A stretch of 64,000 bases of DNA from Escherichia coli (GTDB taxonomy: Bacteria > Pseudomonadota > Gammaproteobacteria > Enterobacterales > Enterobacteriaceae). The translations under genes and the position numbers were made by a program. Where the stretch lies: NCBI RefSeq assembly GCF_003991155.1, contig NZ_CP031293.1. One strand, 5' to 3'. Below, one piece after another: positions 42,889 to 61,253 of this stretch. The notes under the pieces are model-generated. The model ran no database searches, had not been told where the DNA came from, and was given only the letters and a program-made list of their open reading frames with translations. The stretch's first letter is position 1. Each line of letters opens with the position of its first letter.

Positions 42889-43095
42889 ATTTACCCTGTT
42901 TGTTTAATTATGTTGTACACCTCTTCAGGAGTATTCATAAAACAAGACAAATGTAAAGAACTGTATTGTTTTGTATAACCACATGGTTACCTAATCGCCA
43001 ATTAATATAAGCTCCATTATTTCTCCATATTTTTATGTTAGAAGTGACAAGGAGAAATGTAATGTTTCTCTCAGAGAATATAAATCATTCCTTTT

Positions 43096-43121
43096 GCCCA
43101 CCTTAATGGTGGGCTTTTTTA
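43096..43121 (+). terminator. orphan terminator-like hairpin (GCCCACC-TTAAT-GGTGGGC + TTTTTT)
   Basis: Perfect 7-bp GC-rich stem followed by T6; no obvious upstream + strand gene, so possibly left over from lost DNA. Confidence 0.4.
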
Positions 43122-43276
43122 TGCAAAACCTGAACGTCCTGTGGTATTCCTCTGGCATAATGATTTTCGCGATTAACCAACAACCAGACCAGCAAAGACG
43201 CCACCACAAGCACAGCAACATCCTTCAGGCTTGCCACACCCCATACGTGCGGCTCAAAGCCGCCATGGCATATTAA

Positions 43277-43474
43277 TCCGCTTGCCATTTTCGAACAGCT
43301 GATTGGTTTAGTCCGGTGTTTCCCTGCTTGCACTTAAAAATGAGCGGATGGGAAACTCTCGAAATGGTTCGTCGATATGCTCACCTTTCAGTCAGGCATT
43401 TCACCGCGCACGCGAGCAAAATCAAAGGCACAAGAGGAGAACGTAGTTTACTGAAATGTGAGGTAACTTATTGA
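43277..43474 (+). pseudogene. possible C-terminal fragment of a tyrosine recombinase (integrase remnant)
   Basis: Frame translates ...GWETLEMVRRYAHLSVRHF..., resembling the catalytic-Tyr C-terminal motif (ERYAHL) of phage integrases; no N-terminal part present; ends 6 bp before the attR-like repeat. Confidence 0.3.
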
Positions 43475-43480
43475 TTTAAA

Positions 43481-43496
43481 TGGTGCGATAATAGGA
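43481..43496. repeat. attR-like imperfect direct repeat of the thrW 3' end (TGGTGCGATAATAGGA)
   Basis: Matches the tRNA 3' end at 63061-63077 (TGGTGCCGATAATAGGA) except for a 1-nt deletion; same orientation. Confidence 0.55.
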
Positions 43497-43557
43497 ACAA
43501 TACACATAGGCGATAAGCTTTGTTTTTGTTGCCTTTTTTATTGTTCATTTTTTATAG

Positions 43558-43580
43558 ATACCCCCAAAAGTACCCCCATA
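43558..43580. repeat. island-terminal 23-mer ATACCCCCAAAAGTACCCCCATA (putative arm-type integrase site)
   Basis: 22 of 23 identical to 62927-62949 at the other island end, same orientation. Confidence 0.5.
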
Positions 43581-43697
43581 TCTTTTTCCGCCCCTGAAAT
43601 TTGGTTGTTATTCATACAGCATATCAGGCGGTAACGCTCTCCCTTTAACCCACTTATTGTATGATAGTGCTATCCCACAATAAGGAATCAGCCAGCC

Positions 43698-44057
43698 ATG
43701 AGAATGACCAGTCGCAAAAAAGAGATACTTAGCTACTTTGAACCGGATAACCTCGAATGGGTGACTGGTGAGATTGGTGCGCCGCCGTTCGATGTGTCGG
43801 GTGTGGCCTACCTGCTTCATGGCATGGTGTCGTTCGATAAGCGTCACCAGCTCGAATCAACCCGGCGAACACTGGAAAGCATGGTTGCTGGTGGACTGCT
43901 TGAGCGGGTGACAGTGTATGAATCGCGCCAGATACGGCGCGGCGGTGATACTAACGCAACGGTCGTGCGCTACGGTTTACCCGGTCAGTGCGCTGTTATG
44001 CGCGATACTGGCGGCGCTGACAACGCAATATCAGGTGAATACATGCGGGTCAGTTAA
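43698..44057 (+). CDS. hypothetical protein (119 aa), first island gene at the attR side
   Basis: ORF with AAGGA SD; upstream inverted repeat CTTATTGT..ACAATAAG; 3' end overlaps the convergent gene by 8 bp. Confidence 0.5.
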   Translation: MRMTSRKKEILSYFEPDNLEWVTGEIGAPPFDVSGVAYLLHGMVSFDKRHQLESTRRTLESMVAGGLLERVTVYESRQIRRGGDTNATVVRYGLPGQCAVMRDTGGADNAISGEYMRVS

Positions 44058-44592
44058 TAGCCTGCAATCTGTCGTTGATGCGGCTCAGGTCGTAAACCCG
44101 GCGTTCAATATCCAGCATCAGGAAATTGTGGATCTCGGCCTGCTCAGGATTATCAGACTCTCTGGCCTGTAATAGCAATTCATTGTAACCATGCAAGCCG
44201 CCTGAGTTTTCCGCCGGGGTGGTGCCTTTCCCACGCAGGCAGCTAATGGGCTGATTACTCGTATCGTGTGTTTGCTTCTCCAGCACAATGACGCAATCCC
44301 ACCAGTCGCCAAAGTCATACGTGTAAACCAGCTTGTCACCCTCATTCTGGAGCGCCGCCCATAGTGGCGTGATTGCCGCGTTACCCATGCTTTCATCCTC
44401 ACCCCATACGCGATACTCGCTACCTGGATCACCTTTACGCCCTTTCTCGAACATATACAGGTGTTCGTCATTCCAGCCAAAAGCTAACTGGATCACGGCA
44501 TGAAGTTTACTAAAGGGGATTTGCTCTGGAACCAGCACACGCCGCCATATAGGTGGTTTGCTGTCTCGGATGGTTATCTTTAGCTGGTACAT
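44050..44592 (-). CDS. pRiA4b ORF-3-like family protein (180 aa)
   Basis: N-terminal motif YQLKITIRDSKPPIWRRVLVP as I recall for the PRiA4_ORF3 domain family; function unknown. Confidence 0.6.
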   Translation of the reverse strand: MYQLKITIRDSKPPIWRRVLVPEQIPFSKLHAVIQLAFGWNDEHLYMFEKGRKGDPGSEYRVWGEDESMGNAAITPLWAALQNEGDKLVYTYDFGDWWDCVIVLEKQTHDTSNQPISCLRGKGTTPAENSGGLHGYNELLLQARESDNPEQAEIHNFLMLDIERRVYDLSRINDRLQAIN

Positions 44593-44712
44593 GCAAATCC
44601 TGAATAAATGCGAATCGGAAGGATAACGATACTGACGTACTCACAATTCTGTAAAGGTGAATAAAGGAAATTTGCTTAATACGCATAAGTTACATGTGGA
44701 ATAATCCCATAT

Positions 44713-44898
44713 CTACCTGCGCGGCGCTGGCTTCTTCCACTGGTAGGCAGGTGCTCGCATCATTTCGCGGAACCTGTCGCGCCGGGCTATATCGGCATTA
44801 ACTGATCGTTCTATCTCCCGTTGATCTGCCTGTGTAAGCTGGTGGCCTCCGTGCTCAAGTTTGGCGATGGTCAATAAGGCTATTTCGCGTGGTGTCAT
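44713..44898 (-). CDS. hypothetical small protein (61 aa)
   Basis: ORF with AGAGGG SD-like sequence; no recognisable domain. Confidence 0.35.
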   Translation of the reverse strand: MTPREIALLTIAKLEHGGHQLTQADQREIERSVNADIARRDRFREMMRAPAYQWKKPAPRR

Positions 44899-45123
44899 AC
44901 GTCATACCCTCTGGAAGGATGAAACACGCCCGGATTAAATTTCATTTTTCGCGGGTATAAAAAAACGATGGGGCGGGCAGTCCCGGATAGTCAGGGCTGT
45001 AGAGATTTGACTACCCCCTCCCCACTGGATTCAGGTTACTGCTATTCCGTTAAGCGCTGCTTACGGGGATAGCTGCGTTGTGATTTTGACCATTCAGGTC
45101 GCCGCTATTTCCTCACCGATTGG

Positions 45124-45156
45124 GTGCTACGCGCGCGCGTACTTGTCCCGAAATAC
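45124..45156. repeat. copy 1 of repeat TGCTACGCGCGCGTACTTGTC..AAATA.CAG (contains palindrome ACGCGCGCGT)
   Basis: Near-identical to 46518-46550; related partial copies at 46755-46770 and 46807-46835. Confidence 0.6.
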
Positions 45157-45195
45157 CAGAAACCGCCAGCCAGAGGATGATTTCCCTCTGGTGGT

Positions 45196-45477
45196 CTACC
45201 TTTGCCTCTTGCCGCCATTTAACCGGAAGGCGTTACCGTTCGGTTGCGCTATCCCCATGCGGTGTTGCGTTTCGGTAACAGCTTTATGCAGGTCGCCAAA
45301 TTCCTCAACCTTCACGGGCGGGCGCTTCACGTTCTCCAGACACGTTTCACGGCGGCGCTTTATCCATTCCCGATCATCGTCCTCGGTGCATAACAGCATG
45401 ACTTCCATCCATCGTGCGGCAGCTCTCCGGTATAGCCCTTTTGACTCCAGCTCTTCAGCTTTCCTGTCCCTTATCAT
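45196..45477 (-). CDS. PerC-family transcriptional activator-like protein (93 aa)
   Basis: N-terminal motif MIRDRKAEELESKGLYRRAAARWMEVM resembles PerC/Pch family as I recall it; GAGG SD and TATAAT -10 upstream. Confidence 0.5.
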   Translation of the reverse strand: MIRDRKAEELESKGLYRRAAARWMEVMLLCTEDDDREWIKRRRETCLENVKRPPVKVEEFGDLHKAVTETQHRMGIAQPNGNAFRLNGGKRQR

Positions 45478-45513
45478 TTCTGCCTCTCAGATTATATAGA
45501 TAAGCAAAAAGGT

Positions 45514-45634
45514 GTTGGTTCAGTTGGTTCAGTTGGTTCAATTTGTAAAGATCGTTGTTTTTATTGTGTTTTTTCTGAAATGTTGAACCAACATCAACTC
45601 ATTTTGAACCAACACAGCCCAGCTCTGAACCAAC
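45514..45634. repeat. iteron module A: 3 tandem GTTGGTTCA, AT-rich spacer, 3 copies of the complementary TGAACCAAC
   Basis: Copies at 45514-22, 45523-31, 45532-40 and complementary copies at 45584-92, 45605-13, 45626-34. Confidence 0.7.
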
Positions 45635-45736
45635 AACACAGCGATAGCTTTGTGATTGGTCCGTTATTTTCTGGCTGATATTTGAGCGTATAACAGTGTT
45701 ATACAGTGGTATACTGTATGGATATTACTCACTGAT

Positions 45737-46192
45737 ATGGTCTTTGCAATGAGCAAATCTAATCTGATCGCGTTCCGCATCCCATCTGAATTGCAGGATG
45801 AGTTTAATCGGTCTGTTCTCGCTTCTGGAGGGGATAAAACCTCCTGGCTTGTTGATGCGATTCGCATGAAGCTGGGACAGCCGGAAAAGTCTATTGATTC
45901 ACGAATGCTTGGGCTGGTGGAGCGCATGGAAAAAGCCGCTGCGTCGCTTATTGCCGGAAAGCCGAACATCCCACCAAAGCCATATAACGAAACGGCAGTT
46001 ATAAAGATCATTGCCGATACCATCCAACAGGGATTTGATAATGGGCGTGTGATAGCTGAACGGATCAATGAAGCAGGCTATCAAACAAAAGCTGGTAAAG
46101 CGTGGGATAAAGATATTTACAGCGCGTGGAAGCGTCAGGGAAGCAATGCTGAAAAGTTAAAAGCGGTGATTGATTGTAAGGTCAGCGTATAA
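45737..46192 (+). CDS. putative ribbon-helix-helix (CopG/Arc-like) DNA-binding protein with extended C-terminus (151 aa)
   Basis: N-terminal IAFRIPSELQDEFNRSV...KTSWLVDAIRMKL resembles an RHH beta-strand plus helix; start may be the Met at 45749. Confidence 0.45.
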   Translation: MVFAMSKSNLIAFRIPSELQDEFNRSVLASGGDKTSWLVDAIRMKLGQPEKSIDSRMLGLVERMEKAAASLIAGKPNIPPKPYNETAVIKIIADTIQQGFDNGRVIAERINEAGYQTKAGKAWDKDIYSAWKRQGSNAEKLKAVIDCKVSV

Positions 46193-46271
46193 ACATGAGT
46201 GCCCATTGGAAAGCTGCTTGGGCCAATACCTTTATACACCAGCAGGTGGTGACGATAGGTGAGGATTAGGC

Positions 46272-46493
46272 ATGAAAGGCAGAACGCCACACATTGAACA
46301 TCAAGCCAACCACTTCTCGGATGTTCGCAATGAGATGATTGCCATTCGCGGTGATATGCACGGCTTGGAGCGTCGAATTATTGATAAGATTGATGAAAAT
46401 AGAGATAAGGCCAGTGAAAATCAAAAGTGGATCATCGGCCTGTTGATTTTATCAATTCTTATCCCGCTACTTATCGCATTGGTCACAAAATGA
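46272..46493 (+). CDS. small tail-anchored membrane protein (73 aa)
   Basis: GAGGA SD; charged coiled-coil-like N-terminus and single C-terminal TM helix (WIIGLLILSILIPLLIALV). Confidence 0.5.
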   Translation: MKGRTPHIEHQANHFSDVRNEMIAIRGDMHGLERRIIDKIDENRDKASENQKWIIGLLILSILIPLLIALVTK

Positions 46494-46517
46494 ATATCCA
46501 ATGTGTATGCTGTCGAT

Positions 46518-46550
46518 GCTACGCGCGCGTACTTGTCGCAAAATATCAGG
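46518..46550. repeat. copy 2 of the ACGCGCGCGT-ACTTGTC repeat
   Basis: TGCTACGCGCGCGTACTTGTCGCAAAATATCAG, near-identical to copy 1. Confidence 0.6.
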
Positions 46551-46754
46551 CAAAGGCCAGATTCAGAAATTCGTGATAACCACCAGCACAACATGAGAGG
46601 TCATGTAACGCGATTTATCACACCAGATACATGTGATTGGTGTACCCGCATAAAACATCGTCATAGCGCGTCCTGTGCGCATATACGCCGATAATCAACA
46701 CATCACCACCACTCTGTCTCATGTAGAGAACAGTTTTATGGTACTCCCCTCCAT

Positions 46755-46835
46755 CGTGCGCGTACTGGTCGGACGTAGTTGCAAAATTTTTTGCAACTGA
46801 TACCCCTCGCGCGCGTACTGGTCACGAAATTGGTG
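46755..46835. repeat. copies 3 and 4 (partial) of the GCGCGCGTACTGGTC repeat flanking palindrome GTTGCAAAATTTTTTGCAAC
   Basis: CGTGCGCGTACTGGTC at 46755-46770; CGCGCGCGTACTGGTCACGAAATTGGTG at 46807-46835; 20-bp perfect palindrome at 46777-46796. Confidence 0.5.
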
Positions 46836-47036
46836 TTTTGCTGTGGCAGTGATATCAGAAAAATCTTCCTGTTTCACATAAAGCGGATATGCGCGTAATG
46901 TAACGGCCCCATCAACTGGGAGCGGATTTGAGCCCGAATGTGTAGGCAATGTCACTTAACGTTTGTCGCATACCTTCCAGAAAAAGCGATTCATGAATAA
47001 TAGGGGCATGAATGCCCGGCGTACCGGGCTTATTAG

Positions 47037-47735
47037 TTAATTTGGTGCTTTAGGGTCAACATTAAAAGTTATATCACCTTCTGTATTTTTCCCGGCATAG
47101 CTAGCGGCTATTCTCGCCAACCCTTTGTAATCAGCAATTCCATCAGACTGTTGCGAGACGACTGAGCTACCAACTTTCCATAACATATTAATCTGCCGAT
47201 TATTGAGATAAGCCTTGGCATCAAACGACTGGAGTATCACCCCTGCGCCGTAGAACGTGTCCGTCACAGTTGTGTTATACGCGCCAGTAATTCCATAAGT
47301 AGGCGTATAAACTGTTGTTGCCGTTCCAGTGGTATTAGCTGTACCGTAGCCACCACCATAACTATTGAACGTGGTGTTCGAGTTTCCGTACGTTGTTGCT
47401 GAGCTCACACCAGTTTGCCCGTATATTGGGATGGTTACATTACGAGTATTTGAAATGGCCCCGCTTCTCAAAAAGTTCAAGAGAATTACCTGGTCAGCCA
47501 ATTTTTCATCTTTAACTTGTGTATATCCTTGGCTTGATAAACTGGCGGCTACTACCGTAGCTATTTGAGTGTATTCAATCTGTTTGGTGTTCCAAAGTTC
47601 TTGGCTTGCGGGGATGATCAAGAACTTCTTACCGACAGATTGCCCGGAAGATAAAGCATTGACCGTTACTAACGGTTTTTGTACGCATCCAGCCAATAAT
47701 GACAGGGATAATATTAAAAGAAGATTTTTAATCAT
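47037..47735 (-). CDS. lipoprotein (232 aa) with Gly/Thr/Tyr-rich central region
   Basis: Lipobox LLAGC in signal peptide MIKNLLLILSLSLLAGCVQ; low-complexity middle; tandem hairpins downstream of the stop. Confidence 0.7.
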   Translation of the reverse strand: MIKNLLLILSLSLLAGCVQKPLVTVNALSSGQSVGKKFLIIPASQELWNTKQIEYTQIATVVAASLSSQGYTQVKDEKLADQVILLNFLRSGAISNTRNVTIPIYGQTGVSSATTYGNSNTTFNSYGGGYGTANTTGTATTVYTPTYGITGAYNTTVTDTFYGAGVILQSFDAKAYLNNRQINMLWKVGSSVVSQQSDGIADYKGLARIAASYAGKNTEGDITFNVDPKAPN

Positions 47736-47885
47736 GATAATCTCACCTAAGAATTGCGTGGTTATAAATTATCATCACTGTAAGCGAATGTAAGCCACAG
47801 GCTCGTAATGTGATATGGAATTTTGATAGTTGGCTCAATATCAGTATGCCGTCCTTGGCTATTATGGTTTTGTTAGTTAGAGCGT

Positions 47886-50612
47886 CTATTCCCATTCGCT
47901 AACATCTTTCATGCCACTGAGGGTAGCTACAATCCCGGCCCTTGTCAGTTTCACGAATTCTTCAGCCCCAACGGCATCACGAATTGCTTTCATGGCAATT
48001 TTATTGGCCGAAAATCGTTTCTCTGCTGCGGCGATCGCTGCTGGTGATGCCCCTGCGCGCACTGCTTTTGTAGCTTCCTGAACGGCTTTCTCTATCGCAT
48101 ATCGACCACTTCTTGTCGCCCCAATCTTAGCCACAGCATTTCTTAGCGCGCCACCAGCAACCAAACCACTAATCGAACCAATTACACCACCGCCAAAGCC
48201 TCCAGCGATCGCACCTGACTGTTGAACTCCGTTCATAATCACGCCGACGATCTTTGGAAGGCCTGAATCGAGCGTTTTGAGAGCCTCAGTTGTTCTTCCC
48301 GTGCGCTCTACGTATCGCTGCGGTCTGGTACTGGCTTTAGCGAGTACACCGAACTCTTTCATCATTCTACCGAGATCTGGCGCATGACGACTGATGGCGT
48401 TTACATTCTGCTGGGTCATGAGCTTGGCAAAATACTGGATACCTGACTCTTCACCGATTCCTCCCTTCTCTCCCTGCGCCACAGCATGCTGAAGAATAGA
48501 TGCTATTGCAGGTTGGCGTTCTGCTTCCGGCAGCGCGGAGATAAGACGGTGAAAAGCTCCCGTTCCAGTGTTTGCGGATGCCTTAAGCGTATCGGCACCT
48601 TTTCTTACCATAGCGTCTGATGCGAGATCTCGACCAAAAACAGATTCGGCATTTTGTTTGGCGATAATGTAACTTTTAGAGAGATCGTTAGCTTTCTGCC
48701 ATTCTGTGAGGAAGTTTCCTTTTTCAGCCATGATGCGCATGTCATCAGTGATAGCTCTGCGCATTTCTCCGGCAATCCGGGCGGCATTGGCCTTACCTGC
48801 CCGGGTGTTTGCTTGTTCAGCATCAGCAAACTTAGCACGCCATGCCTTCATCCCGTCGAAGGTTATGCCGCCACCTTGGTTGTTGGCAGCCTGAAACTGT
48901 TTCATCTCCGGGCTGAGTGGAACATTGGCTGCTTTTTCTGCTTGGACGACAGCCATCCCATTACTCATTTTCATCCTTTCGCGTGGCATCGTGCTTCGCA
49001 GTTCTGCCCATGCCATATTCTCTGCTGTTTTCATATCACTGAGGCTCGCGATGATGCGCTCTTTAATTGCTGCGCTTTTTTCTGATGCGCTTCCAGACTC
49101 AGCACCGAAATCAGACAACTGCTTATTCAACTTTGAGGATATTTCATTGAAGGCCGTAAGGTGAGCATCCTGAACATTCCCAGGAGTTGATGCCAGAACA
49201 CCTTCTGCTTGGGCAATTCCACGACTACCTGAGCGCATTCCAGGCGTCAGGGTGTTGATATTAATACCAGTGATTTTCGCCGCCTTAGCGACATCATCTC
49301 TGACGTTTGATGCCTGCGATGCGATATGCTCTCGGCCTACGGCAGAACGCGCTGCTTTCGATACATCATTGGCGGTTTCCAGAGTATTTGCTGCCCCTAA
49401 CACATGGCCTGATTGATTTGTATTACTCCGCAATACATCTCGCATTACGTCACTGGCTGTCTGTCCGCTCTTTATTAAAGCGCGTGCTCCTAGCGATCCT
49501 GCTAGGCCAATACCTGTCTCTTTTGCTAGGTCTTCTGGGCTGATCTGCCCGTTCTTTTGGGCGTTCACCAATGTACCTGGCAGGTTTTCTGCCAACATAC
49601 TAGCCACCTTTGTGGCCGCACGTTCAGCACGTGGAGCGTTGGCAACTGAAGAAGCTGCGGTAGCTGCCTTTCCTGCACCTAATCCTGTAATAAGGTAAGG
49701 TGCTAGCTGCTCACCAGCCTGCGCGTATGGATCTGTAGGTTGGTCTACTGGGCGAAAGACAGGTGATATGGGCGTGTATGTGCCATCACCCACACCAAGC
49801 TTCTGAGCTGCCCATGCTCCGGCTGATTGCGCCGCATTGACTACCCCCACGCCTGCGTCCATTACATCAAACGGTATATTAGCAATCCCTCTGGCCATCT
49901 GCTCTGGCGCAGCTTTCAGTCCTGGCGAAAGATATTCCATCTCAGGATTAAGGTTAGACTTGGCTACTTGCTGCTGCGGTTCCCCGGCATTTTCATCGGC
50001 GAGAAACTGAGCTCTTTTCTGCTCCCATGAACTGGCTGTTGGTAGTCCTGCTTCTATGTTCTTAAATTGCTGACGTTTTGCTTCCCATGCAGAAATATCT
50101 CCCACCTGAGAGATTTCTTTATCAAGCTCTGAGTAGTCAGGCTGCTGAAGATTGCGATGTTGACTGGTTTGTGCAAACTGCAAGATTTCACTGTCATCAG
50201 GGATTATTCCGGCATCTGCAAATTTACTTACGTAATTAGCCGTTTCATCTGGCAGTGTAGATTTACCGTTTCTGACGGCATTAATACGAGCATAGCCAGA
50301 ATTATACCCAGCCAATGCCATACCTATATCACCAAATCGCTTCATTCCTTTATTGAGATGGTTTGCTGCGATATCCATTTGCTTTTCAAATGGCAGTGAG
50401 CGCGGATCTGTTCCACGATAACCAGCATCACTCATTACTGAGGGCATCAGTTGAGCAAATCCTCTAGCTCCTTTCGGTGACTCGGCACTTCCGTTACCAC
50501 TAGATTCATTGCCAACTAATGTTTCCATCGTCCCTGATGGGAAACCATATTTTTCATCGAGATGACGGGAATAGGCTTTCTGTTTTTCTGTCAGTTGTGC
50601 CATCATTGCCAT
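47886..50612 (-). CDS. large protein (908 aa) with N-terminal lytic transglycosylase (SLT) domain and long alpha-helical Ala/Lys-rich body
   Basis: SLT motifs near N-terminus (GNESSGN...ESPKGARGFAQLMP...ALAGYNSGYARI); start overlaps upstream gene stop. Confidence 0.8.
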   Translation of the reverse strand: MAMMAQLTEKQKAYSRHLDEKYGFPSGTMETLVGNESSGNGSAESPKGARGFAQLMPSVMSDAGYRGTDPRSLPFEKQMDIAANHLNKGMKRFGDIGMALAGYNSGYARINAVRNGKSTLPDETANYVSKFADAGIIPDDSEILQFAQTSQHRNLQQPDYSELDKEISQVGDISAWEAKRQQFKNIEAGLPTASSWEQKRAQFLADENAGEPQQQVAKSNLNPEMEYLSPGLKAAPEQMARGIANIPFDVMDAGVGVVNAAQSAGAWAAQKLGVGDGTYTPISPVFRPVDQPTDPYAQAGEQLAPYLITGLGAGKAATAASSVANAPRAERAATKVASMLAENLPGTLVNAQKNGQISPEDLAKETGIGLAGSLGARALIKSGQTASDVMRDVLRSNTNQSGHVLGAANTLETANDVSKAARSAVGREHIASQASNVRDDVAKAAKITGININTLTPGMRSGSRGIAQAEGVLASTPGNVQDAHLTAFNEISSKLNKQLSDFGAESGSASEKSAAIKERIIASLSDMKTAENMAWAELRSTMPRERMKMSNGMAVVQAEKAANVPLSPEMKQFQAANNQGGGITFDGMKAWRAKFADAEQANTRAGKANAARIAGEMRRAITDDMRIMAEKGNFLTEWQKANDLSKSYIIAKQNAESVFGRDLASDAMVRKGADTLKASANTGTGAFHRLISALPEAERQPAIASILQHAVAQGEKGGIGEESGIQYFAKLMTQQNVNAISRHAPDLGRMMKEFGVLAKASTRPQRYVERTGRTTEALKTLDSGLPKIVGVIMNGVQQSGAIAGGFGGGVIGSISGLVAGGALRNAVAKIGATRSGRYAIEKAVQEATKAVRAGASPAAIAAAEKRFSANKIAMKAIRDAVGAEEFVKLTRAGIVATLSGMKDVSEWE

Positions 50613-51922
50613 CCCTTAAGTTTTGCCTGATAGTAACTTTCCGGCAGATAGCCATGTGCGGTCACATAATCCTTAACCAGTGAAGGATCCTGCAACAGCA
50701 TTTTGGTATCAGTTTCTTCGTCCTTAGATTTGGTTACAGGAATACCGAGCCCGGCAATCTGTCGTTTCTGCATTCGAATAATTACGTCCTGCGCTTTATT
50801 CAACTCTCGCAAAAATGCCTCATTGCTGGTTGCTGACTTAATGCCATTTTGAGATTGCATAAGGGCAGCCCTTTCCCCTTCGGTTGGGTTAGAGCCAAAA
50901 GTCCCTTTGAGGCTAGGCAGAATAACCTTTAGGTTGTATTCATCAGCTTTGGCGCGTAGGCTTCGTGTGTCTTCTGCTACATCAGGAAGGAATCCAAACC
51001 CCAGCGTCAGGGGGTTATAGTTCTGCGAGCGGGTAACGGCCGAAGGATGTTTCCCTACAATTCCCGCCAGTTCATGACCCACTTCAAGCGCAGAGTTCAA
51101 GGAGTCGATGTTACCTACAACAGTATTAATTTTATCGTTCATCTTCTCCACTTTCGCCTGCTGTACCTTGCTCAGTTCAGCATTGAGCTTGTCTCTCTCG
51201 ATGTCATTTTGAGCACGTCCAAGTCGTGCTTTCAGAACCATTTCTCTCGTGCGTAGTTGGTTATCGGATAGGACTTTGAACTGCTCCATATCGAGACGTC
51301 GATTACCCTGTTCCGCATTAACCTGAGCATTATATGCGGATGTATCTGCGTTCTGCTGTGCAATGCTCTGCCCTTGCTGCTTCTCTTGAACACTAAAGTA
51401 ACTATTTGGATCAGCATGGAGGTGGATGAGGTCAGTGATTCTGTTGAATTCCTGTGGGTCATTCTGCCAAGACTGATAAACCTCTTCAGCAGGAAGACCA
51501 AATCGCTGTAATACTGGATTTGCCTGCTGAATGGCCTTCTGCATGGTCAGTGGATCTCCAGTTTGTGACGCAAGACGCAGATTCATGGCAGCGTCAGCGG
51601 TCTGTCGATTTTGCTCAGCATCAATGAATCCCATCTGTTTTTGAGAATCAGCCATAAACTGGGGATACTGGGCCATTAACTTCTGCACGCCAACACGATC
51701 ATTATTAGCTACCGCACTACCCAACCGTGCCTGATATTCTTTTAACTGCTGGGAAATTTGCGCCTGCTGATTAATCTCAGCAACGCCTCTTAGCCCCTGT
51801 AGCGCCATTAAACCTACGTTTGGCTGCTGCTGATACTGCACAGGCTGAGGAACGGAAGAACGAGGAGCATTATCATTTTGCGGTGCCATGCTAGGCAGCC
51901 CGCCAAGTTGCCATGTCGCCAT
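50603..51922 (-). CDS. Gln-rich coiled-coil protein (439 aa), co-transcribed with the SLT protein
   Basis: Long ORF, translationally coupled on both sides; Q/A/N-rich helical composition. Confidence 0.7.
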   Translation of the reverse strand: MATWQLGGLPSMAPQNDNAPRSSVPQPVQYQQQPNVGLMALQGLRGVAEINQQAQISQQLKEYQARLGSAVANNDRVGVQKLMAQYPQFMADSQKQMGFIDAEQNRQTADAAMNLRLASQTGDPLTMQKAIQQANPVLQRFGLPAEEVYQSWQNDPQEFNRITDLIHLHADPNSYFSVQEKQQGQSIAQQNADTSAYNAQVNAEQGNRRLDMEQFKVLSDNQLRTREMVLKARLGRAQNDIERDKLNAELSKVQQAKVEKMNDKINTVVGNIDSLNSALEVGHELAGIVGKHPSAVTRSQNYNPLTLGFGFLPDVAEDTRSLRAKADEYNLKVILPSLKGTFGSNPTEGERAALMQSQNGIKSATSNEAFLRELNKAQDVIIRMQKRQIAGLGIPVTKSKDEETDTKMLLQDPSLVKDYVTAHGYLPESYYQAKLKGWQ

Positions 51923-52599
51923 TAGAATCCAAGCCCCCCAACAAGACCAATAAGCCCACCACCAATAGCGCCGGCCGCAGTTCCTATTCCAGGAACAACG
52001 GAACCAAGTTGCGCACCCGCTAAAGCGCCTGATGCTGCCCCACCAATACCACGCGCAAGACTGGATGGCTGCTGCGCCTGACCTGCACGAATAGCGCCAA
52101 GCCCCTGCAAGAGTTGTCCGGTATTATTGGCGTAGTTTTGCCCTGCCGTTGCCTGCCCTGATGCCGCATTCATCCCGACATTTAGCAGGTTTCCATAATT
52201 TTGCATTTGCCCACTAAGCCAATTGTTATAAAGCATGGGCGCAATGGAAGATAACTGGTTACTGGTAGCTGTTGAGCCAAGCCCCCCGGTAGCTTCTGCT
52301 GAGACAAGGTTCTGATAACGGGCCTGATCTGCCTGTGTTTTATATAAACCAGAACCAAAGAAATCATTCGCGGCTTTATTCTGCCCTTCCAGAGTCATCA
52401 GTCCTTGCAGTTGTTGTAAAGCAGGCAATCCGACTTCTGCATACGGCTTGAGATTATTCATCACCGTATTCCACTGCTCGCGCTGCAAATCAATTGCCTG
52501 CTGCTGGGCCTTCGCCTGAGCTTTAGAGGCACCACCATCACCGCCTTTTTCGTATACGGCACGATTGAGATGTTTATGAGCTATATGGGTAATTAACAT
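51922..52599 (-). CDS. Gly-rich protein (225 aa) with C-terminal Gly/Ala hydrophobic tail
   Basis: C-terminus GIGGAASGALAGAQLGSVVPGIGTAAGAIGGGLIGLVGGLGF; coupled to neighbours. Confidence 0.65.
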   Translation of the reverse strand: MLITHIAHKHLNRAVYEKGGDGGASKAQAKAQQQAIDLQREQWNTVMNNLKPYAEVGLPALQQLQGLMTLEGQNKAANDFFGSGLYKTQADQARYQNLVSAEATGGLGSTATSNQLSSIAPMLYNNWLSGQMQNYGNLLNVGMNAASGQATAGQNYANNTGQLLQGLGAIRAGQAQQPSSLARGIGGAASGALAGAQLGSVVPGIGTAAGAIGGGLIGLVGGLGF

Positions 52600-53054
52600 T
52601 CGCTGAATTCCTTATATTGTTGCCGAGTTAACTGATAAAGCGTTACGCCGACGGGTTTACCACATCTGATATAAGCATCATCAAGGTGACCAACACGGGT
52701 AGCGCCAAGCAAACGGATAATTGCCCGTCCATATTTTGTGGTGTCAGGAACCATAGTGATGCTGTTAAGGAATGGTGAGTTTTCGAGAAGCCATTTGCAG
52801 AATAATCGATGCCCTTGCAGTGCATATTCACCACGGAATCCGGGGTCGTACACCGCATGGCATTCAACAACGCTATGCCAGAAGTTACGCACTTCATGAA
52901 CGCCAGCCAGCACTAATCCTTCGTAGATGCCGAGATATACCGCATCAGGCTTGATGTAGTACGTGTGCCCCGGCTCAACAATATTTTCGGTATTGCCTGG
53001 CTCGTTAAGAAAGGCCTGTAATCGCACAGGGTTATCAATAAATTTTAGTTCCAT
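52593..53054 (-). CDS. hypothetical protein (153 aa), first large gene of the SLT operon
   Basis: ORF overlapping the downstream gene start; no recognised motif. Confidence 0.6.
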   Translation of the reverse strand: MELKFIDNPVRLQAFLNEPGNTENIVEPGHTYYIKPDAVYLGIYEGLVLAGVHEVRNFWHSVVECHAVYDPGFRGEYALQGHRLFCKWLLENSPFLNSITMVPDTTKYGRAIIRLLGATRVGHLDDAYIRCGKPVGVTLYQLTRQQYKEFSEC

Positions 53055-53070
53055 GCGATGCCATCCATTT

Positions 53071-53232
53071 TCACATACAGCCTGCCAGCGCCTTATCTAT
53101 TAACCCTCGTGCAATTTCATGCAGAGTTGGCGCTACTCCAATTCCTGATTTTTTACGCTGCTCTTCCTGAATTTTCTTTATCGCTTCCATTTGCTTCTCA
53201 CTTATCAATACCGGCTTTACTGAAATAGCCAT
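53071..53232 (-). CDS. small putative DNA-binding protein (53 aa, possibly ribbon-helix-helix)
   Basis: ORF 53071-53361; start placed at MAISVKPVL with GGGGG SD 4-5 nt upstream; LexA-like box just upstream. Confidence 0.45.
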   Translation of the reverse strand: MAISVKPVLISEKQMEAIKKIQEEQRKKSGIGVAPTLHEIARGLIDKALAGCM

Positions 53233-53248
53233 AACGCCCCCCTTAGAA

Positions 53249-53264
53249 CTGTATAAAACAACAG
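53249..53264. promoter_or_regulatory. candidate LexA (SOS) box CTGTATAAAACAACAG
   Basis: CTGT-N8-ACAG with AT-rich centre; about 17 bp upstream of the 53-aa gene start; nearby TATAAT-like hexamer on the minus strand. Confidence 0.5.
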
Positions 53265-53681
53265 TTATTATAGTTTCACAAATCGCAATATTCATCATCG
53301 TAATTGCAAAATATGAAACAAATAGCACAAAAAAATGCCACCGCTCAGTAGCTGGTGGCATCGTTCTGTGTGTCAGGTTTTGACAGGTTTTTTATGGACT
53401 CTAAAAACTATATTTATGGTATCGCATTACTCTTCACGGCAGGTGCTTTTCAGTTCTGCCCTTGCTTCTGGCTCCATTGGTAATTTGATTCGCGATCAGC
53501 TATGCGGATGGTTTGCTGAACAGGCATAACAACTTCTCAGAGGCTGTTTTTTGAACTACGAAAATTTCGTAGTGCTCACTTTCAAAAACGTCACGCCCTT
53601 GTACACAGGATTTTACGAAAGTCTCGTAAAACACTCTCTGATGCCAGCCAGGTGTTGTGCGCATCAATTCAGTCACATTGT

Positions 53682-53792
53682 GTCGGTTCAAAATACCGTG
53701 TTGTTGGTTCAGTGTTGGTTCAATAAAAAGAATAAAATCCTTATAAAACAATACACTTTACAAATTGAACCAACTGAACCAACTGAACCAAC
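53682..53792. repeat. iteron module B: inverted, diverged copy of module A
   Basis: GTCGGTTCA 53682-90, GTTGGTTCA 53704-12 and 53714-22, then tandem TGAACCAAC at 53766-74, 53775-83, 53784-92; spacer begins with reverse complement of the module A spacer (ATTTGTAAAG). Confidence 0.7.
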
Positions 53793-53817
53793 ACCTTTTC
53801 TACGCACATGAAGAAGC

Positions 53818-56577
53818 TCATTCTTCAGATGAGTTATAATCTCCTGGCTGGTAATTGAGTACATAAACGTTTATTTGTCGTCCCTGAATACGTGGTGATT
53901 TTCTTTGGTATCCACGACCGCTGTTTGGTGGGGTTAGCATCCCGGCTTTTTTCAACACTTCAGCAAACTGTTTTGCGTTGAAACCACATGCGATCTCCTT
54001 TTCAAATGTGGCCGGGAATGTGTAGAAAATCATTGGGCTTTCGTCATGTTCTCCACGCTGACGGTATCCGGCTAAATCTTTGATGGGCAAATCTGCCGGG
54101 CTGTATGGAAATGGTGCAAAACGGCTAAGCCCATAGGCATTAAGAAATGCCTCCGTTTGTTCAATAATCTGCTGATGCTCTTTGTTACCTGTGCCGAACT
54201 CGCGCAACCATGCGTTATAGCTGTGCTGTATCGCATCACGGCATGTCTGAGCATCCCAGCCTGTTACAACCTCGCCTAACAACAATGCGGCCTCCAGAAT
54301 GGCAAATCGCGCGGCTACACGGTGAACCTGCTCACCATAATCGGATGGGATCAGGCTTCTCCATCTGCTTTCGCAATCACGAACGGTTTTAATAGCCTGT
54401 TGCTGGTGGTGTGCCAGCCATTTAATCCACTCACGCCCGGACGCGCCGTGGTGATGCTGGTAAGCGTCTTTCAGTGCGTCTGCGTGCTGTTTTCCGTTCT
54501 GGTAATCGTGAAAGCGTACTGCTTTACTCAACGGAATATTCAGCAGTCGCACCAGTTGCCCGGCTTTGGTTTTTCGCCCGGAAGTAGCGATAAATGTTTC
54601 TAAATCCATTTCTCCGGTGCTGATTGCCACTGTACGCCAGCGTTTTAGATCCCGGTTTCCACCATCTTTAGCGCCTTGCAGTTTCCCTACACCGTTAAAT
54701 AACGCATAGGCAGACTGTGAAACGCTGACAGGATCAGCGCCCTGACCAACTTCATCAAGCGGCATTAGTCCGTCATTGTGGGCGGCGGCCTCATTTGCCA
54801 GCCCCAGCGCGGTTCCGTACCACGTCAGCCGCAGTAAATCAGGGTTGCCGTATAAGCTGCTCGCCACGTTTGCCGTGGTGGTCTTACCTGCGCTCGACTG
54901 CTCATAGAAATGAATGCCGAACCCGTCAGCGCCCACCAGCCCAATCAATGGCGCTGCCAGTGCTGCGCCGATCCCGGTCATCATTGAATAGTTACCAAAG
55001 GCCAGACGCGCCACGTTATCACGCCAGCTTTTCGCGCTCCCTGAGACGGTATATCCGGCTGCGGCTGAGCTTCTCCCGCTGAACAGCACAGGATTTTCAG
55101 GTGTTCCGATGATTTCCCCATCAGGCATGATGTACGCTCCGCATTGCCAGCCAGTGGCATGAGCAACACGCCACAATTCACGAGAGCCACTGCGTTGTAG
55201 CCAGTCTGCCAGTATTGCTCTGAGGCTGCTTTTGGTCGTGACATTTACCCCACCAGCTTTAAGTGTGCGCCATCCTTCACGTTCACCAATATCAGCCAGT
55301 GGAATGGCAGCGGTTGTCGGCGTTTCAGAACCAAACGACAGCCAGCGAAGAATGAGATACTGGTCTTTATCGTCTCTGCCAGTACCGATAACGCTTAACG
55401 GAGAACATAACCAGCTTTCGTTATTGATGATTTCTCCACTCTGGCTGTCAGCTCTCGGAGATACCCAATAAATACCATCCTCGCGGCTTTCTATTCTTGG
55501 TTTCAGTGGGTCGGTATCCATAACCTTAAAATCGCTTCCCTCAATGGTCTGTGGCTCCTGTTTCACGCCATTACCCTGTGGTTGGTACATTGACTTATTG
55601 AACGCTTCTGTGGCGCATTTAATGCCGTGTTTTTGGTGGTAATCATTCCAGTCTGCTTTGTGATCTGTCGGGGGTAATGCCACCCATCCAGAAACAGATA
55701 AAGCTGCTTTTTCTGCTGCTATTCTCCCCGTGTTTTGTCTTCCTTCGCTGTGGTCGTTATCCGCAGCAATGATGATTTGTGCTGAAGGAAATTTATCCCG
55801 CAGTACCTGGGCGACATATAACAGGTTCCCGGCATCAATCGCCGCCACTGTCAGCGCCTCTGGACGAATTAAATGGGCAGATAATGCCGTTGCCAGACCT
55901 TCTGCGATTAAGATGCTCTGTGTTGTTTCTGGTGCGTTTATGGCGTGATATGCCCCCCGCTTTGCTGAACCTGTCAGGAGTCTTTTTTCACCATGTGAGG
56001 TAATAGTCTGTGCTGCTGTGACTGCGCCGGATTTATCCACCAGCGCCAGCAACAGAGATCCATCGGGCAACACGGGGAATGTAAAATCACCTACCCCTTT
56101 CGCAACCAGATAATCAGATTTGCCGTTTACAGCCTTTCTGCGCATGTCATCAAACTGACGGGAAAACGTATCCCGTCTTTGTTGTTCGTCCTTCTCTGCC
56201 CTTTTCAGGCGCTCCTGTTCGCGTCGCTGGCGCTCGGTTTCCAGTTGTTCCCGTTTCTGGCTGGTGGCTTCTGGTGTTTCCGTTGTCCGGTAATCAATAC
56301 CCAGAACATCAGCGGCAAGAAGCGCCGCCTCTGTTGTGTCGCAGTTATTTACGCGTTTAATTAAATCCAGCCCATCACCAGCGCCGCACTGATTACAGAT
56401 GAAGCTACCGCGCCCGTTGTCATCGAACCGGAATCGATCTTTGCCCCCACATGCAGGGCAGGGAGCATGACGGCGCGGAGAGTCAGGGACATTTATGTTC
56501 AGGCAGCCCAGCACATGAGGCCAGTTGTTTTCAGACGCACTGATAACCTGACGGATAAGATCAATGTTTCGCATCAC
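53818..56577 (-). CDS. primase-helicase (P4 alpha-like): N-terminal zinc-ribbon primase plus C-terminal P-loop helicase/NTPase
   Basis: 919 aa; zinc ribbon CPACGGKDRFRFDD...CNQCGAGDG; Walker A YEQSSAGKTTT. Confidence 0.85.
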   Translation of the reverse strand: MMRNIDLIRQVISASENNWPHVLGCLNINVPDSPRRHAPCPACGGKDRFRFDDNGRGSFICNQCGAGDGLDLIKRVNNCDTTEAALLAADVLGIDYRTTETPEATSQKREQLETERQRREQERLKRAEKDEQQRRDTFSRQFDDMRRKAVNGKSDYLVAKGVGDFTFPVLPDGSLLLALVDKSGAVTAAQTITSHGEKRLLTGSAKRGAYHAINAPETTQSILIAEGLATALSAHLIRPEALTVAAIDAGNLLYVAQVLRDKFPSAQIIIAADNDHSEGRQNTGRIAAEKAALSVSGWVALPPTDHKADWNDYHQKHGIKCATEAFNKSMYQPQGNGVKQEPQTIEGSDFKVMDTDPLKPRIESREDGIYWVSPRADSQSGEIINNESWLCSPLSVIGTGRDDKDQYLILRWLSFGSETPTTAAIPLADIGEREGWRTLKAGGVNVTTKSSLRAILADWLQRSGSRELWRVAHATGWQCGAYIMPDGEIIGTPENPVLFSGRSSAAAGYTVSGSAKSWRDNVARLAFGNYSMMTGIGAALAAPLIGLVGADGFGIHFYEQSSAGKTTTANVASSLYGNPDLLRLTWYGTALGLANEAAAHNDGLMPLDEVGQGADPVSVSQSAYALFNGVGKLQGAKDGGNRDLKRWRTVAISTGEMDLETFIATSGRKTKAGQLVRLLNIPLSKAVRFHDYQNGKQHADALKDAYQHHHGASGREWIKWLAHHQQQAIKTVRDCESRWRSLIPSDYGEQVHRVAARFAILEAALLLGEVVTGWDAQTCRDAIQHSYNAWLREFGTGNKEHQQIIEQTEAFLNAYGLSRFAPFPYSPADLPIKDLAGYRQRGEHDESPMIFYTFPATFEKEIACGFNAKQFAEVLKKAGMLTPPNSGRGYQRKSPRIQGRQINVYVLNYQPGDYNSSEE

Positions 56578-56932
56578 CGTACCCCACGTGGTCTATAGCG
56601 TTTGCGATATGGCTAACCAGCATCTGCCACTTGGTTATTCCGTAATCAGTCAGCATGCCATCATTGTTTAGCCACATATCAAATTCAGCGGTTGTCGCAA
56701 GTTTCCACTTATCGCCGTGGACAGTCCTCATTGCTGGGTACATGAATGCGCAAATCAGATCACAAACATCTGACGGCTTCAGAGATGTAGTAATGGTGCG
56801 TCCCTCTGGCGTCTGAATTGCCATTTTCTCTTCACCAGTAGAATGAAGGTTATGAATCCACACAGCACCAGCAATCTTTGCCACCTGCTCTCCGATTGCG
56901 GAGCTAAGCGCCATTTCTGCATTTTCACGCAT
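56561..56932 (-). CDS. hypothetical protein (123 aa), overlaps primase start
   Basis: ORF in coupled chain; 3' end overlaps primase start by 17 nt. Confidence 0.55.
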   Translation of the reverse strand: MRENAEMALSSAIGEQVAKIAGAVWIHNLHSTGEEKMAIQTPEGRTITTSLKPSDVCDLICAFMYPAMRTVHGDKWKLATTAEFDMWLNNDGMLTDYGITKWQMLVSHIANAIDHVGYGDAKH

Positions 56933-57266
56933 GAGAACCTCCCGCTACAGTTGCGCCCATGTCATTAACCATGCTTTGCCATATCTCACGCCCGACGTCA
57001 GTCAATCCGTCCTTAGTGACGCAACGTTCAAGAAGCTCGATCCCCACGGTTTCCCACTGCGGGTAGAACACTTTCATGGCTGCCAGTGTGTAGCTATCGA
57101 TCAGGCTGCGAACGCCTTTTACTCCATTGACGATTTCCACACGGACGGCCTCGCCGTCCGCATCAACCATGAAATAGTCCCCGCCGCTGGTGGAGGTAAT
57201 GTGGTTATACAGTGCCGACGCATACTTATTTGCCAGCGCATTCAGTCGGAAATTTTTAGTAATCAT
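56925..57266 (-). CDS. hypothetical protein (113 aa)
   Basis: ORF in coupled chain; 8-nt overlap with downstream gene. Confidence 0.55.
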   Translation of the reverse strand: MITKNFRLNALANKYASALYNHITSTSGGDYFMVDADGEAVRVEIVNGVKGVRSLIDSYTLAAMKVFYPQWETVGIELLERCVTKDGLTDVGREIWQSMVNDMGATVAGGSHA

Positions 57267-57276
57267 GGCTCCATCC

Positions 57277-57879
57277 TCAGTGCGTCACTGGTTCCGCTGG
57301 CATGCCGTTTTCATTCAGTTCAGCTATAAAGCTGTTGTGAAGTTCAGCAAGCGTTTCACGCCCAAATGGAGTCAGTGCTCCTTGTTCCACATCCATCATG
57401 GCTCTGTAGAAAATAATGGCGCGTTCTGTGCCAGACTCGATGCCAAAACGTTCTATCATCGCGCCCTCAATGTTGTTTGCCATAGCGAGGCGCTCTGCTA
57501 CTGGATACAGCGGCATGGCGACGATGCCGTTGGAATAAACAGCCACTTCGGAAGGATTGCCAGTATCATCAATGATGCTGACAGTGCCGTTTTCCTCTCT
57601 CATTTCCAGCATGAATACTGTTGCGATCAGCCATCTCCACATAATGACGTTATGCTGTGATGTGTAATCGAAATATCCCTGGTTACCGCCATCGGCAATA
57701 GCGAGATGTATTGACATACCTTCATCTGGTTTATCGTCATAATCCCCGGCATCCAGACGATTTACGGCATCAATATATGAGATGGCCTCAACGCGTTCTG
57801 TCATGCCATCGTTGCTGCGGTACATGATGTTTACGCCGTCAGGCGTTGCTTCTGCATGGAAAGTTAAGAAATTATTCAT
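57277..57879 (-). CDS. hypothetical protein (200 aa)
   Basis: ORF 57277-57984; start placed at MNNFLTFHAEA where ATG overlaps upstream stop (CATGAATAA). Confidence 0.55.
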   Translation of the reverse strand: MNNFLTFHAEATPDGVNIMYRSNDGMTERVEAISYIDAVNRLDAGDYDDKPDEGMSIHLAIADGGNQGYFDYTSQHNVIMWRWLIATVFMLEMREENGTVSIIDDTGNPSEVAVYSNGIVAMPLYPVAERLAMANNIEGAMIERFGIESGTERAIIFYRAMMDVEQGALTPFGRETLAELHNSFIAELNENGMPAEPVTH

Positions 57880-58093
57880 GTTTCGCCTCGCCTGAATGAT
57901 TCTGTAACTCATATTTGCCCAACAATTCGTCCGCTTCCTGAATAGCTTCTGGTACGCCATTGAGCAGTGACATAACCGCGCCAATCATTAACTTGTCTCT
58001 GTTGCTGGGGCTGGCCCCTTCAAGCCAGAACCCTAAAACAGTCTGAACCTGTTCGATGCGACATTGCGCTTCAATGAGCTGGATGTTGGTCAT
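57872..58093 (-). CDS. hypothetical small protein (73 aa)
   Basis: Start overlaps upstream stop (ATGA). Confidence 0.5.
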   Translation of the reverse strand: MTNIQLIEAQCRIEQVQTVLGFWLEGASPSNRDKLMIGAVMSLLNGVPEAIQEADELLGKYELQNHSGEAKHE

Positions 58094-58353
58094 TTCGCAC
58101 TCTCCACATCGATTAAACCGATATCTATCAGGGAGGTAACTTTTTGTAGCCAGCTATTGATTACTGTCGCCTGTTCCCCTCCCACCGAGGGAACAATCTC
58201 ATTCATCACATGAACCAGACCTGTGCGCGCTCTGGTAAGCCGTTCAGTCGCGCAATCTGCGGGAGTGAATGTGTCTGGATATGGCTCTTCACGCCCCAGC
58301 AATGATTCAATTTCCAGCTCACACGGATGACGATAAATTAAGTTGATATTCAT
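58090..58353 (-). CDS. hypothetical small protein (87 aa)
   Basis: Start overlaps upstream stop (ATGA). Confidence 0.5.
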   Translation of the reverse strand: MNINLIYRHPCELEIESLLGREEPYPDTFTPADCATERLTRARTGLVHVMNEIVPSVGGEQATVINSWLQKVTSLIDIGLIDVESAK

Positions 58354-58544
58354 TTTTCACCCCCAAGAATTACCAGCTCGGCACGGGCATCGTTAACCAA
58401 AGATGAGCACGCTTTAATCGCATCCACGACATCAGCAGCGTCCATTTCTTCAGCCGAAAGACTGACAGCAACCAGGACAGCCGCTGCTTGCTCGATTAAT
58501 TGAAGTGCGGACGTAAGTCGAGGGGCATTAATTGAGTTATTCAT
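58350..58544 (-). CDS. hypothetical small acidic protein (64 aa)
   Basis: ORF 58350-58601; start placed at [10 protein letters not shown] with G-rich SD; overlaps upstream stop by 8 nt. Confidence 0.5.
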   Translation of the reverse strand: MNNSINAPRLTSALQLIEQAAAVLVAVSLSAEEMDAADVVDAIKACSSLVNDARAELVILGGEK

Positions 58545-58755
58545 TGGTTGCCCCCGTTTTTCCTGGCATTTCGCCACCTTCCAGCAGGAAATGAACGTCA
58601 CGAACGGCGAGATCCAATATCGCGAGTAACGCCTTCAGTCTTTCGTCTCGTGAGGGAGAGTTGCTCACCAGAATGTCGTTAATCACTTCTGTCAGTGTGA
58701 TGATCTGGCTTGTGCGTTCGAGGGGATCCATATGCACATCGTAGGTTTTAATCAT
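58537..58755 (-). CDS. hypothetical small protein (72 aa)
   Basis: Start MIKTYDV preceded by GGAGG (6-nt spacer); ATG overlaps stop of the 58748-58942 ORF; in frame with the long 58537-59604 ORF. Confidence 0.5.
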   Translation of the reverse strand: MIKTYDVHMDPLERTSQIITLTEVINDILVSNSPSRDERLKALLAILDLAVRDVHFLLEGGEMPGKTGATNE

Positions 58756-59604: not shown

Positions 59605-59780
59605 TTGTTAACCTCCGCGAACTCCTTCATGAAACGCGCCAGCGGTTGTACGCATGGCGATTGATACCCGTCGCGATAAAACGTCACTCGGTTGTGAGAC
59701 ACGCTTTCGACAGTAACGAGTGCTCCGTGGGCATCTTTGTAGCGTTTTTGTGGTTGTGGTGTTCCTGTTGGCTTAGACAT
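59598..59780 (-). CDS. hypothetical small protein (60 aa)
   Basis: ORF 59598-59867; start placed at MSKPTGTPQ with GGAGG SD; overlaps antirepressor-like gene end and next gene start. Confidence 0.5.
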   Translation of the reverse strand: MSKPTGTPQPQKRYKDAHGALVTVESVSHNRVTFYRDGYQSPCVQPLARFMKEFAEVNKC

Positions 59781-60606: not shown

Positions 60607-60618
60607 TTTCAGTCTCCG

Positions 60619-61050: not shown

Positions 61051-61253
61051 CAGGCCACCTCGTCTCTAGATTCTAATATACACTTCTCAATCCATTCATC
61101 TATTTCAGACTCAACAAAAGCAATTGCCCGACTTCCAATTTTTACCTGTTTAGGGAACCTCCCCTGACTAATAAGACGATAAATCCATGCTTTGCTATAA
61201 CCAGTTCGCCTTTGAACTTCAGAGAGACGAATTAATGAATTGTAATTAGCCAT
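61050..61253 (-). CDS. alpA: AlpA-family phage regulatory protein / excisionase-like (67 aa)
   Basis: MANYNSLIRLSEVQRRTGYSKAWIYRLISQGRFPKQVKIGSRAIAFVESEIDEWI: typical AlpA/MerR-like HTH. Confidence 0.8.
   Translation of the reverse strand: MANYNSLIRLSEVQRRTGYSKAWIYRLISQGRFPKQVKIGSRAIAFVESEIDEWIEKCILESRDEVA

Follow-up and report, generated by a model that had tools for sequence, protein, structure and literature searches.

Four direct copies of a motif of ~22 bases, all on the + strand, occur at the accessory end of an EcCIMP1-type satellite in a 64,000-nucleotide stretch of Escherichia coli DNA (contig NZ_CP031293.1; the whole stretch is called the window here). We favor the explanation, with a probability of about 0.4, that these copies (c1–c4) are pac-like recognition sites for the Sf6-type small terminase subunit (TerS) of P22-like helper phages, as sequence comparison suggests. 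The repeat is real, restricted to one island family, non-coding, present in one orientation, and similar to a segment of the helper terS; genomes that have it also tend to have Sf6-type terS genes. From these properties, we infer TerS binding and a role in packaging. The case is circumstantial, because the terS match taken alone is no better than chance matches found elsewhere in the island.

In the proposed mechanism, the copies would have been taken from, or would mimic, the segment of the helper terS gene around codons 55–61. Being directional, they would let the helper's TerS and large terminase subunit (TerL) start headful packaging on replicated island DNA, with the packaging run proceeding towards decreasing window coordinates. 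The copies could explain how a satellite that has no terminase is packaged, since its recognition sites would derive from the small-terminase gene of the helper. The pac site of Sf6 reportedly lies in the part of terS that encodes the DNA-binding domain. A location inside terS is described for many pac phages, Sf6 included, in a passage of bioRxiv 10.1101/851345 that cites Leavitt 2013.

Repeat copies and the module that contains them

The core of the motif (GCGCGCGTACTKGTC), allowing up to two mismatches, has six matches in the window as compared with 0.21 expected, and a count of six was reached in 0 of 100 shuffles. The repeat as such is real and far above chance, and the four copies reported in the original prediction are all present. 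Two further core matches (at 5573 and 9314) fall within core genes away from the island and look like chance; the strong copies are all confined to 1.7 kb of the island. Copy c1 (45125–45159, TGCTACGCGCGCGCGTACTTGTCCCGAAATACCAG) is located 37 nt 3' of the stop codon of a PerC-family gene and ~100 nt from a cos-like region. It has one additional CG, such that its alternating run is ACGCGCGCGCGT, and its minus strand reads LVFRDKYARA-stop. Copy c2 (46517–46549, TGCTACGCGCGCGTACTTGTCGCAAAATATCAG) is located 24 nt 3' of the stop codon of a small-membrane-protein gene and opens a 419-bp module at the edge of a variable cargo slot. The copies are thus placed around these genes as first described. 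Copy c3 (core at 46756–46770, GTGCGCGTACTGGTC) has one core mismatch and is the most degenerate of the four; among variants, GCGTACTGGTCGGAC is constant in most and GCATACTGGTC occurs in the L030 type, with variable flanks. Copy c4 (46809–46830, GCGCGCGTACTGGTCACGAAAT) reads AKHQFRDQYARE on its minus strand. A weak fifth copy, held at low confidence, may be present on the same strand at 46889–46901 (ATGCGCGTAATGT).

The conserved unit is the asymmetric string GCGCGCGTACTKGTCNCRAAAT, which consists of (CG)n, then GTACTKGTC, and then NCRAAAT. The repeat had been described as built around a palindrome. We find the palindrome to be incidental, because the part common to the copies is asymmetric and the exact 10-mer (ACGCGCGCGT) has a single occurrence, in c2. 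The palindromes in c1 and c2 differ in length (14 and 12 bp, respectively), and there is none in c3, which has GTGCGCGT, or in c4, which is without the symmetric left arm. Copies c1 and c2 have ~45 nt in common, and c3 and c4 are parts of a 53-bp local tandem duplication around a 20-bp perfect palindrome (GTTGCAAAATTTTTTGCAAC). This second palindrome does adjoin the copies as predicted, although its position needed correction by one base, to 46778–46797, between c3 and c4. Its center is variable among variants and its arms are mostly retained. In every locus examined, all copies lie on one strand, and the asymmetry of the unit makes it directional.

Copies c2–c4 lie within a conserved non-coding module of 419 bp (46513–46931), which is 95–99% identical in ~544 E. 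coli genomes. Copy c2 forms its left edge, with homology between islands resuming at 46513. The variable cargo slot to the left of c2 (46193–46512, after an RHH-like [ribbon-helix-helix] gene) holds the small-membrane-protein gene in the window; in relatives, it holds an Abi-family gene (L002 and L010) or, in EcCIMP1 (L127), a helix-turn-helix (HTH) gene. To the right of the module, the set of ejection genes differs between two island lineages, one located at thrW and having a DUF927 primase and the other located near dinD and having a DUF5906 primase. The module is retained between variable flanks in both. Its variants differ by 1-nt indels, so no open reading frame (ORF) is conserved across it, and its ORFs have no Pfam match. 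Small ORFs over the copies (78 amino acids, 46719–46955; and 57 amino acids, 46421–46594) were considered and set aside, as they have no family matches and their frames are broken by these indels. The frame that reads FRD carries stops in c1, in c4 of strain MP1, and in L008.

A separate observation concerns the interior of the module. In three loci (L005, position 5135; L006, position 5118; and L009), the island sequence ends after the same base, 46629 (...ATCACACCAGATA), within the region 46618–46638, and past this base the loci run on into two different prophages. A possible core-type recombination site, ATCACA-N9-TGTGAT, has this break in its spacer.

The motif search beyond the window that the original prediction had called for shows the motif to be restricted to islands. 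A 37-mer of c2 is present in 558 of 5426 complete E. coli genomes (~10%), at one to five places in each and on no plasmid. In IMG/VR, the exact 22-mer pattern occurs in 25 stretches, nearly all of the EcCIMP1-type island family, and a scan of 100,044 species (one genome each) yielded nine matches to the pattern, none of them enterobacterial. The motif is a cis element specific to the EcCIMP1-type island family. A repeat of the repetitive extragenic palindromic (REP) or miniature inverted-repeat transposable element (MITE) type, spread through the genome independently of the island, would share with it a GC-rich palindromic core and an intergenic location, as would a bacterial interspersed mosaic element (BIME). 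However, REP and BIME elements have hundreds of chromosomal copies in most strains, while the window motif is island-specific and forms no hairpin pairs. None of the nine matches among the species genomes is REP-like. We regard this explanation as negligible, and a genome-wide REP is excluded because ~90% of complete E. coli genomes are without the motif and carriers have one to five copies.

The motif also recurs with unrelated flanks. In L002, a c1-like copy lies ~100 bp inside the distal end of a dinD-side island, where no cos-like homology was detectable. In L032, the motif lies inside an Ash-family gene, in a different reading frame, and in L008 it is located 3' of two large genes in a GC-rich host. 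In L027, it forms the first codons of a homologue of a 61-amino acid ORF of the window island; this homologue starts with MGFRDQYARAK. Even if the repeats are not a TerS target, they provide a useful marker of an island family that is widespread, being present in ~10% of complete E. coli genomes.

Resemblance to Sf6-type terS

Read on the minus strand, the copies encode F-R-D-K/Q-Y-A-R. Sf6 gp1 has FRDKYAKA at codons 56–63, encoded by TTTCGCGACAAGTACGCGAAGGCA, and genuine Sf6-type TerS genes (PF20901, E 3e-45) of unrelated hosts contain the exact 22-mer at these codons, the cases being IMG/VR stretches and one Neisseriaceae genome. Copy c1 matches the terS genes of Kapi1 and Sf6 (nt ~163–185) at 17 of 18 bases (TTTCGGGACAAGTACGCG as compared with TTTCGCGACAAGTACGCG), and c2 matches them at 14 of 14 bases plus AAAAT. 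When terS was aligned with the module or with the c1 region, the top local alignment fell exactly on the motif and scored above 200 of 200 shuffles. In the Kapi1 genome (39.4 kb), the sole match to the 15-mer core at three or fewer mismatches lies in terS (18881–18895). Kapi1 is the phage that mobilizes EcCIMP1 (PMC11773190), and its TerS is of the Sf6 type, matching Sf6 gp1 over all 140 residues and annotated with a two-residue N-terminal extension. The terS-sense strand of the copies points in the same direction as the terS side of the adjoining cos-like region, where the phage terS side corresponds to lower coordinates.

Co-occurrence with helper terS types was determined over the 5426 complete genomes, with joint counts obtained from union counts. 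The module is present in 544 genomes and the DNA-binding-domain region of Sf6-type terS in 234, with a union of 726. The two occur together in 52 genomes as compared with 23.5 expected, a 2.2-fold enrichment (naive hypergeometric p = 1.5e-8, with phylogeny ignored). As a control, SfV-type terS is present in 1124 genomes (union 1563) and occurs together with the module in 105 as compared with 112.7 expected, with no enrichment.

A number of points weigh against the copies being pac-like sites, among them the disregard of phylogeny in this count. In an unbiased short-word comparison of 3.6 kb of the island (43479–47036) with Kapi1, several chance 14–15-mers scored equally (E 0.1–0.4), and the terS match alone is therefore statistically unexceptional; it takes the other lines of evidence to make the terS similarity convincing. 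Just 12–18 nt are common to the motif and terS, the GCGCGC extension of the island motif is AAGGCA in Kapi1 and Sf6 terS, and no homology between the module and terS was found beyond the motif. The full motif had no significant match in GenBank phages. Within terS, the motif forms the conserved edge of an exchangeable DNA-binding-domain module; one might expect a pac site that determines specificity to lie further upstream. A synonymous-site profile of 56 terS alleles, which are of low diversity, had no clear trough at the motif. As to the helper, Kapi1-mediated transfer is very low, and a Kapi1-like prophage is present in two of 21 EcCIMP1 strains (PMC11773190). Finally, the cos-like region near c1 is a second candidate packaging signal, and it may be the island's main packaging route.

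One further candidate was not used. The IMG/VR contig 3300045988_004969 (L016/L082) seemed to be a P22-like phage that has both an Sf6-type terS and the module. Its Kapi1-like late operon, with the Sf6-type terS, is joined to an island-type gp16-like gene and the module; the right part is 99% identical to an island, and the contig terminates in an AlpA-like ORF that was recognized by eye. The contig may be a phage-satellite recombinant or a chimeric assembly formed through common ejection genes.

Alternative explanations for the copies

The main rival to a pac-like function, which we consider unlikely, is that the copies are recombination joints or relics of terS and have no sequence-specific function. 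Short stretches that began as the most conserved codons of Sf6-type terS genes would mark where phages and satellites swap modules, and these stretches would have been duplicated and converted. Copy c2 lies exactly at the start of inter-island homology (46513) and adjoins the variable cargo slot, although such a border position is equally expected for the first constrained element past the slot. In terS, the same sequence is a joint between divergent and identical parts of alleles: alleles that are 78% identical upstream turn identical from GACAAGTACGCG onward, which fits a recombination joint as well as it fits a pac site. The locus L007 (position 6262) is a natural recombinant between c3 and c4, in which a 53-bp deletion has removed the 20-bp palindrome; the copies are therefore able to recombine. 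Polymorphisms in c4 resemble gene conversion from c1, and the differences between copies look codon-level (third position of an Arg codon, K/Q, and D/E). A precedent is provided by SaPIbov4 and SaPIbov5, Staphylococcus aureus pathogenicity islands (SaPIs) that retain a terS remnant beside an acquired phage cos (PMC5052747). However, a decaying gene fragment should give one copy with extended weak homology, and the window instead has four cores of ~22 nt. The core also recurs among unrelated flanks in several island types, and the whole module is 95–99% identical between variable neighbors.

Operator sites follow as a rival and are quite improbable. Originally, operators for an island regulator or a structured repeat had been suggested. 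Operators bound by the RHH-like protein, by PerC, or by another regulator would accord with the copies flanking the PerC and RHH-like genes, with the 14- and 12-bp palindromes in c1 and c2 and the 20-bp palindrome between c3 and c4, and with the restriction of the motif to the island family. Neither the position of the copies nor their asymmetry lends this reading much support. Copies c1 and c2 lie past the 3' ends of genes, and the divergent promoter region of the PerC and RHH-like genes (45478–45736) contains none of the copies. An operator is expected at or overlapping a regulated promoter, but a promoter scan was blank at the copies. The unit is asymmetric and in a single orientation throughout, the palindromes of c1 and c2 are unequal in length, and c3 and c4 have none. 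Copies c2 and c4 are retained in L025, where no homology to the RHH-like gene was detected, and in EcCIMP1 the RHH-like gene is replaced by an HTH gene. Less probable still is that the copies act as RNA, with the self-complementary CG runs of different copies pairing into a structured transcript that would serve as a regulatory RNA or as a signal for processing or termination. In the predicted fold of the + strand (z = -2.1), c3 and c4 pair with each other around the hairpin of the palindrome, and c2 pairs with the weak fifth copy, but the fold of the minus strand has a z-score of -1.0, and folding of the module appears marginal. CG runs pair trivially, the conserved GTACTKGTCNCRAAAT part is without a partner, and other islands hold single copies. 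Rfam covariance models gave no credible match over 43000–48000 at E values up to 1, and intrinsic terminators (a GC-rich hairpin followed by a T run) were matched solely at 47004–47029, away from the copies. Taken together, the suggestion of a structured repeat is weak.

The satellite, its cos-like region, and related systems

The island (43479–63077, minus strand) is 19.6 kb in length and is located at the tRNA-Thr gene thrW, between proA and yagU, extending from a degenerate att repeat (43479–43496) to the tRNA (63061–63136). A degenerate 16-mer at 43479–43496 is all that was seen of an attR repeat of the thrW 3' end; this end of the island was confirmed by comparison with EcCIMP1. The island is ~98% identical in DNA sequence to EcCIMP1 of strain MP1 over 43479–45635 and 46513–64000 (~19.7 kb), and the PerC, 61-amino acid, pRiA4b-ORF3, and lipoprotein accessions are identical to those of EcCIMP1. 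Strain MP1 holds c1, c2, and c4. By site, gene set, and sequence, the island is an EcCIMP1-type phage-inducible chromosomal island (PICI). EcCIMP1 excises, circularizes, and is transduced only with the P22-like phage Kapi1, and it has no terminase or capsid genes (PMC11773190). Its description states the packaging mechanism to be unknown and mentions neither pac nor cos (PMC11773190).

The genes of the window island encode an integrase, an AlpA-like HTH protein, AntA/B, an Ash-family protein, and a TOPRIM/DUF927 primase, followed by homologues of P22 gp14 (DUF2824), gp7 (PF25688, E 7e-73), and gp20 (PF16928, E 4e-22). An SLT-domain protein occupies the position of gp16, and a lipoprotein gene precedes the repeat region. 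The gp7, gp20, gp14-like, and gp16-position genes tie the island to P22-like virions; it encodes no terminase. Around and past the repeat region lie the RHH-like gene (45737–46192, + strand, 151 amino acids, weak PHROG match only), the small-membrane-protein gene of the cargo slot (46272–46493, + strand), the PerC-family gene (45196–45477, minus strand; PF06069, E 3.7e-30), the 61-amino acid ORF (phrog_7271; 44713–44898, minus strand), and a pRiA4b-ORF3 gene. The 61-amino acid ORF lies directly on the terS side of the cos-like region and could be a small packaging adaptor.

Several further features of the island were observed. Its length is about half that of the Kapi1 (39.4 kb) or SfV (37 kb) genome, so a dimer would be enough to fill a helper capsid of normal size; no gene for capsid-size redirection was evident in the island. 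An iteron cluster is located between the PerC and RHH-like genes (45514–45634), with three copies of GTTGGTTCA and three of the inverted TGAACCAAC, and a second cluster of the same iteron (two and three copies) is located just 3' of the primase gene (53703–53792). The arrangement recalls P4 ori/crr. Directly next to the degenerate att repeat (TGGTGCGATAATAGGA), within 43316–43496, is a C-terminal integrase fragment left over from an older thrW island; at this site the window strain has neither the vat/MarR island of MP1 nor the pao operon of LF4-1.

The cos-like region (44925–45029, minus strand) is that of phages of the SfV/SfII/SfIV/SfI/ST64B/phiP27 type, which are HNH-dependent and have a P27-family TerS. 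Over 59 nt, its identity to the end of the SfV genome is 95%, and it can be aligned with the cos site annotated in phiP27; terS corresponds to the side of lower coordinates and the HNH gene to the opposite side. It is possible, though doubtful, that EcCIMP1-type satellites have two packaging signals, each used by a different and unrelated family of helpers. Through the terS-derived pac copies, P22-like podoviruses that have an Sf6-type TerS (Kapi1, for example) would be able to package the island by the headful mode, and the cos site would serve HNH-dependent phages of the SfV/phiP27 type. In that case, the island would be a Gram-negative satellite of dual mode (pac and cos). The 2025 description of EcCIMP1 leaves open how the satellite enters Kapi1 particles and why most carriers are without a Kapi1-like prophage, and the repeats and the cos site ~100 bp from c1 are concrete candidates for its missing cis packaging signals. 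If the motif is a TerS target, it would also supply a short defined sequence for pac recognition by Sf6-type TerS, which is poorly defined and hard to demonstrate in vitro.

Among known packaging sites, the copies resemble most directly the headful pac sites of P22-like phages (the 22-bp asymmetric pac of P22 inside gene 3 and the Sf6 pac inside terS), which are likewise short, asymmetric, and directional (PMC9611059). The island motif matches a segment of the helper terS, and the helper Kapi1 has an Sf6-type TerS. In contrast to these pac sites, the island motif lies outside any terS, occurs in four copies in a satellite without a terminase, and is a candidate known from sequence that has just the short stretch noted above in common with terS. 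The hexamer clusters of P1 pac provide a second likeness, as they consist of several short direct repeats over a few hundred bp of the packaging-initiation region. The pacL and pacR boxes of SPP1 are arranged similarly (PMC4737164). The sequences and terminases of P1 and SPP1 are unrelated to those considered here, however, and c1 is separated from the remaining copies by 1.4 kb.

The island also resembles satellites that carry a packaging site of the helper, such as P4, cos-type SaPIs with a terS remnant, and PICIs of the Rpp type, but it differs in having a multi-copy fragment of helper terS, no terminase, and the cos of another phage family. EcCICFT073-type PICIs with Rpp are E. coli elements that likewise have int, AlpA, primase, and PerC-like genes, and their cos packaging needs a cis site recognized through the helper TerS (PMC9026076). 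Their helpers are lambda-like, and they use the Rpp adaptor and a PICI-specific cosB, whereas no Rpp was identified in the window island, whose known helper is a headful podovirus. In the cos-type SaPIs SaPIbov4 and SaPIbov5, the packaging operon has been lost except for the terS remnant, and the highly conserved cos is that of HNH-dependent cos phages (PMC5052747). The window island too combines terS-like fragments with an HNH-type phage cos. The SaPIs are Gram-positive elements unrelated in sequence, and what they retain of terS is one fragment from the 3' part of the gene, while the window island has 22-nt cores that are repeated and correspond to the gene's 5' half.

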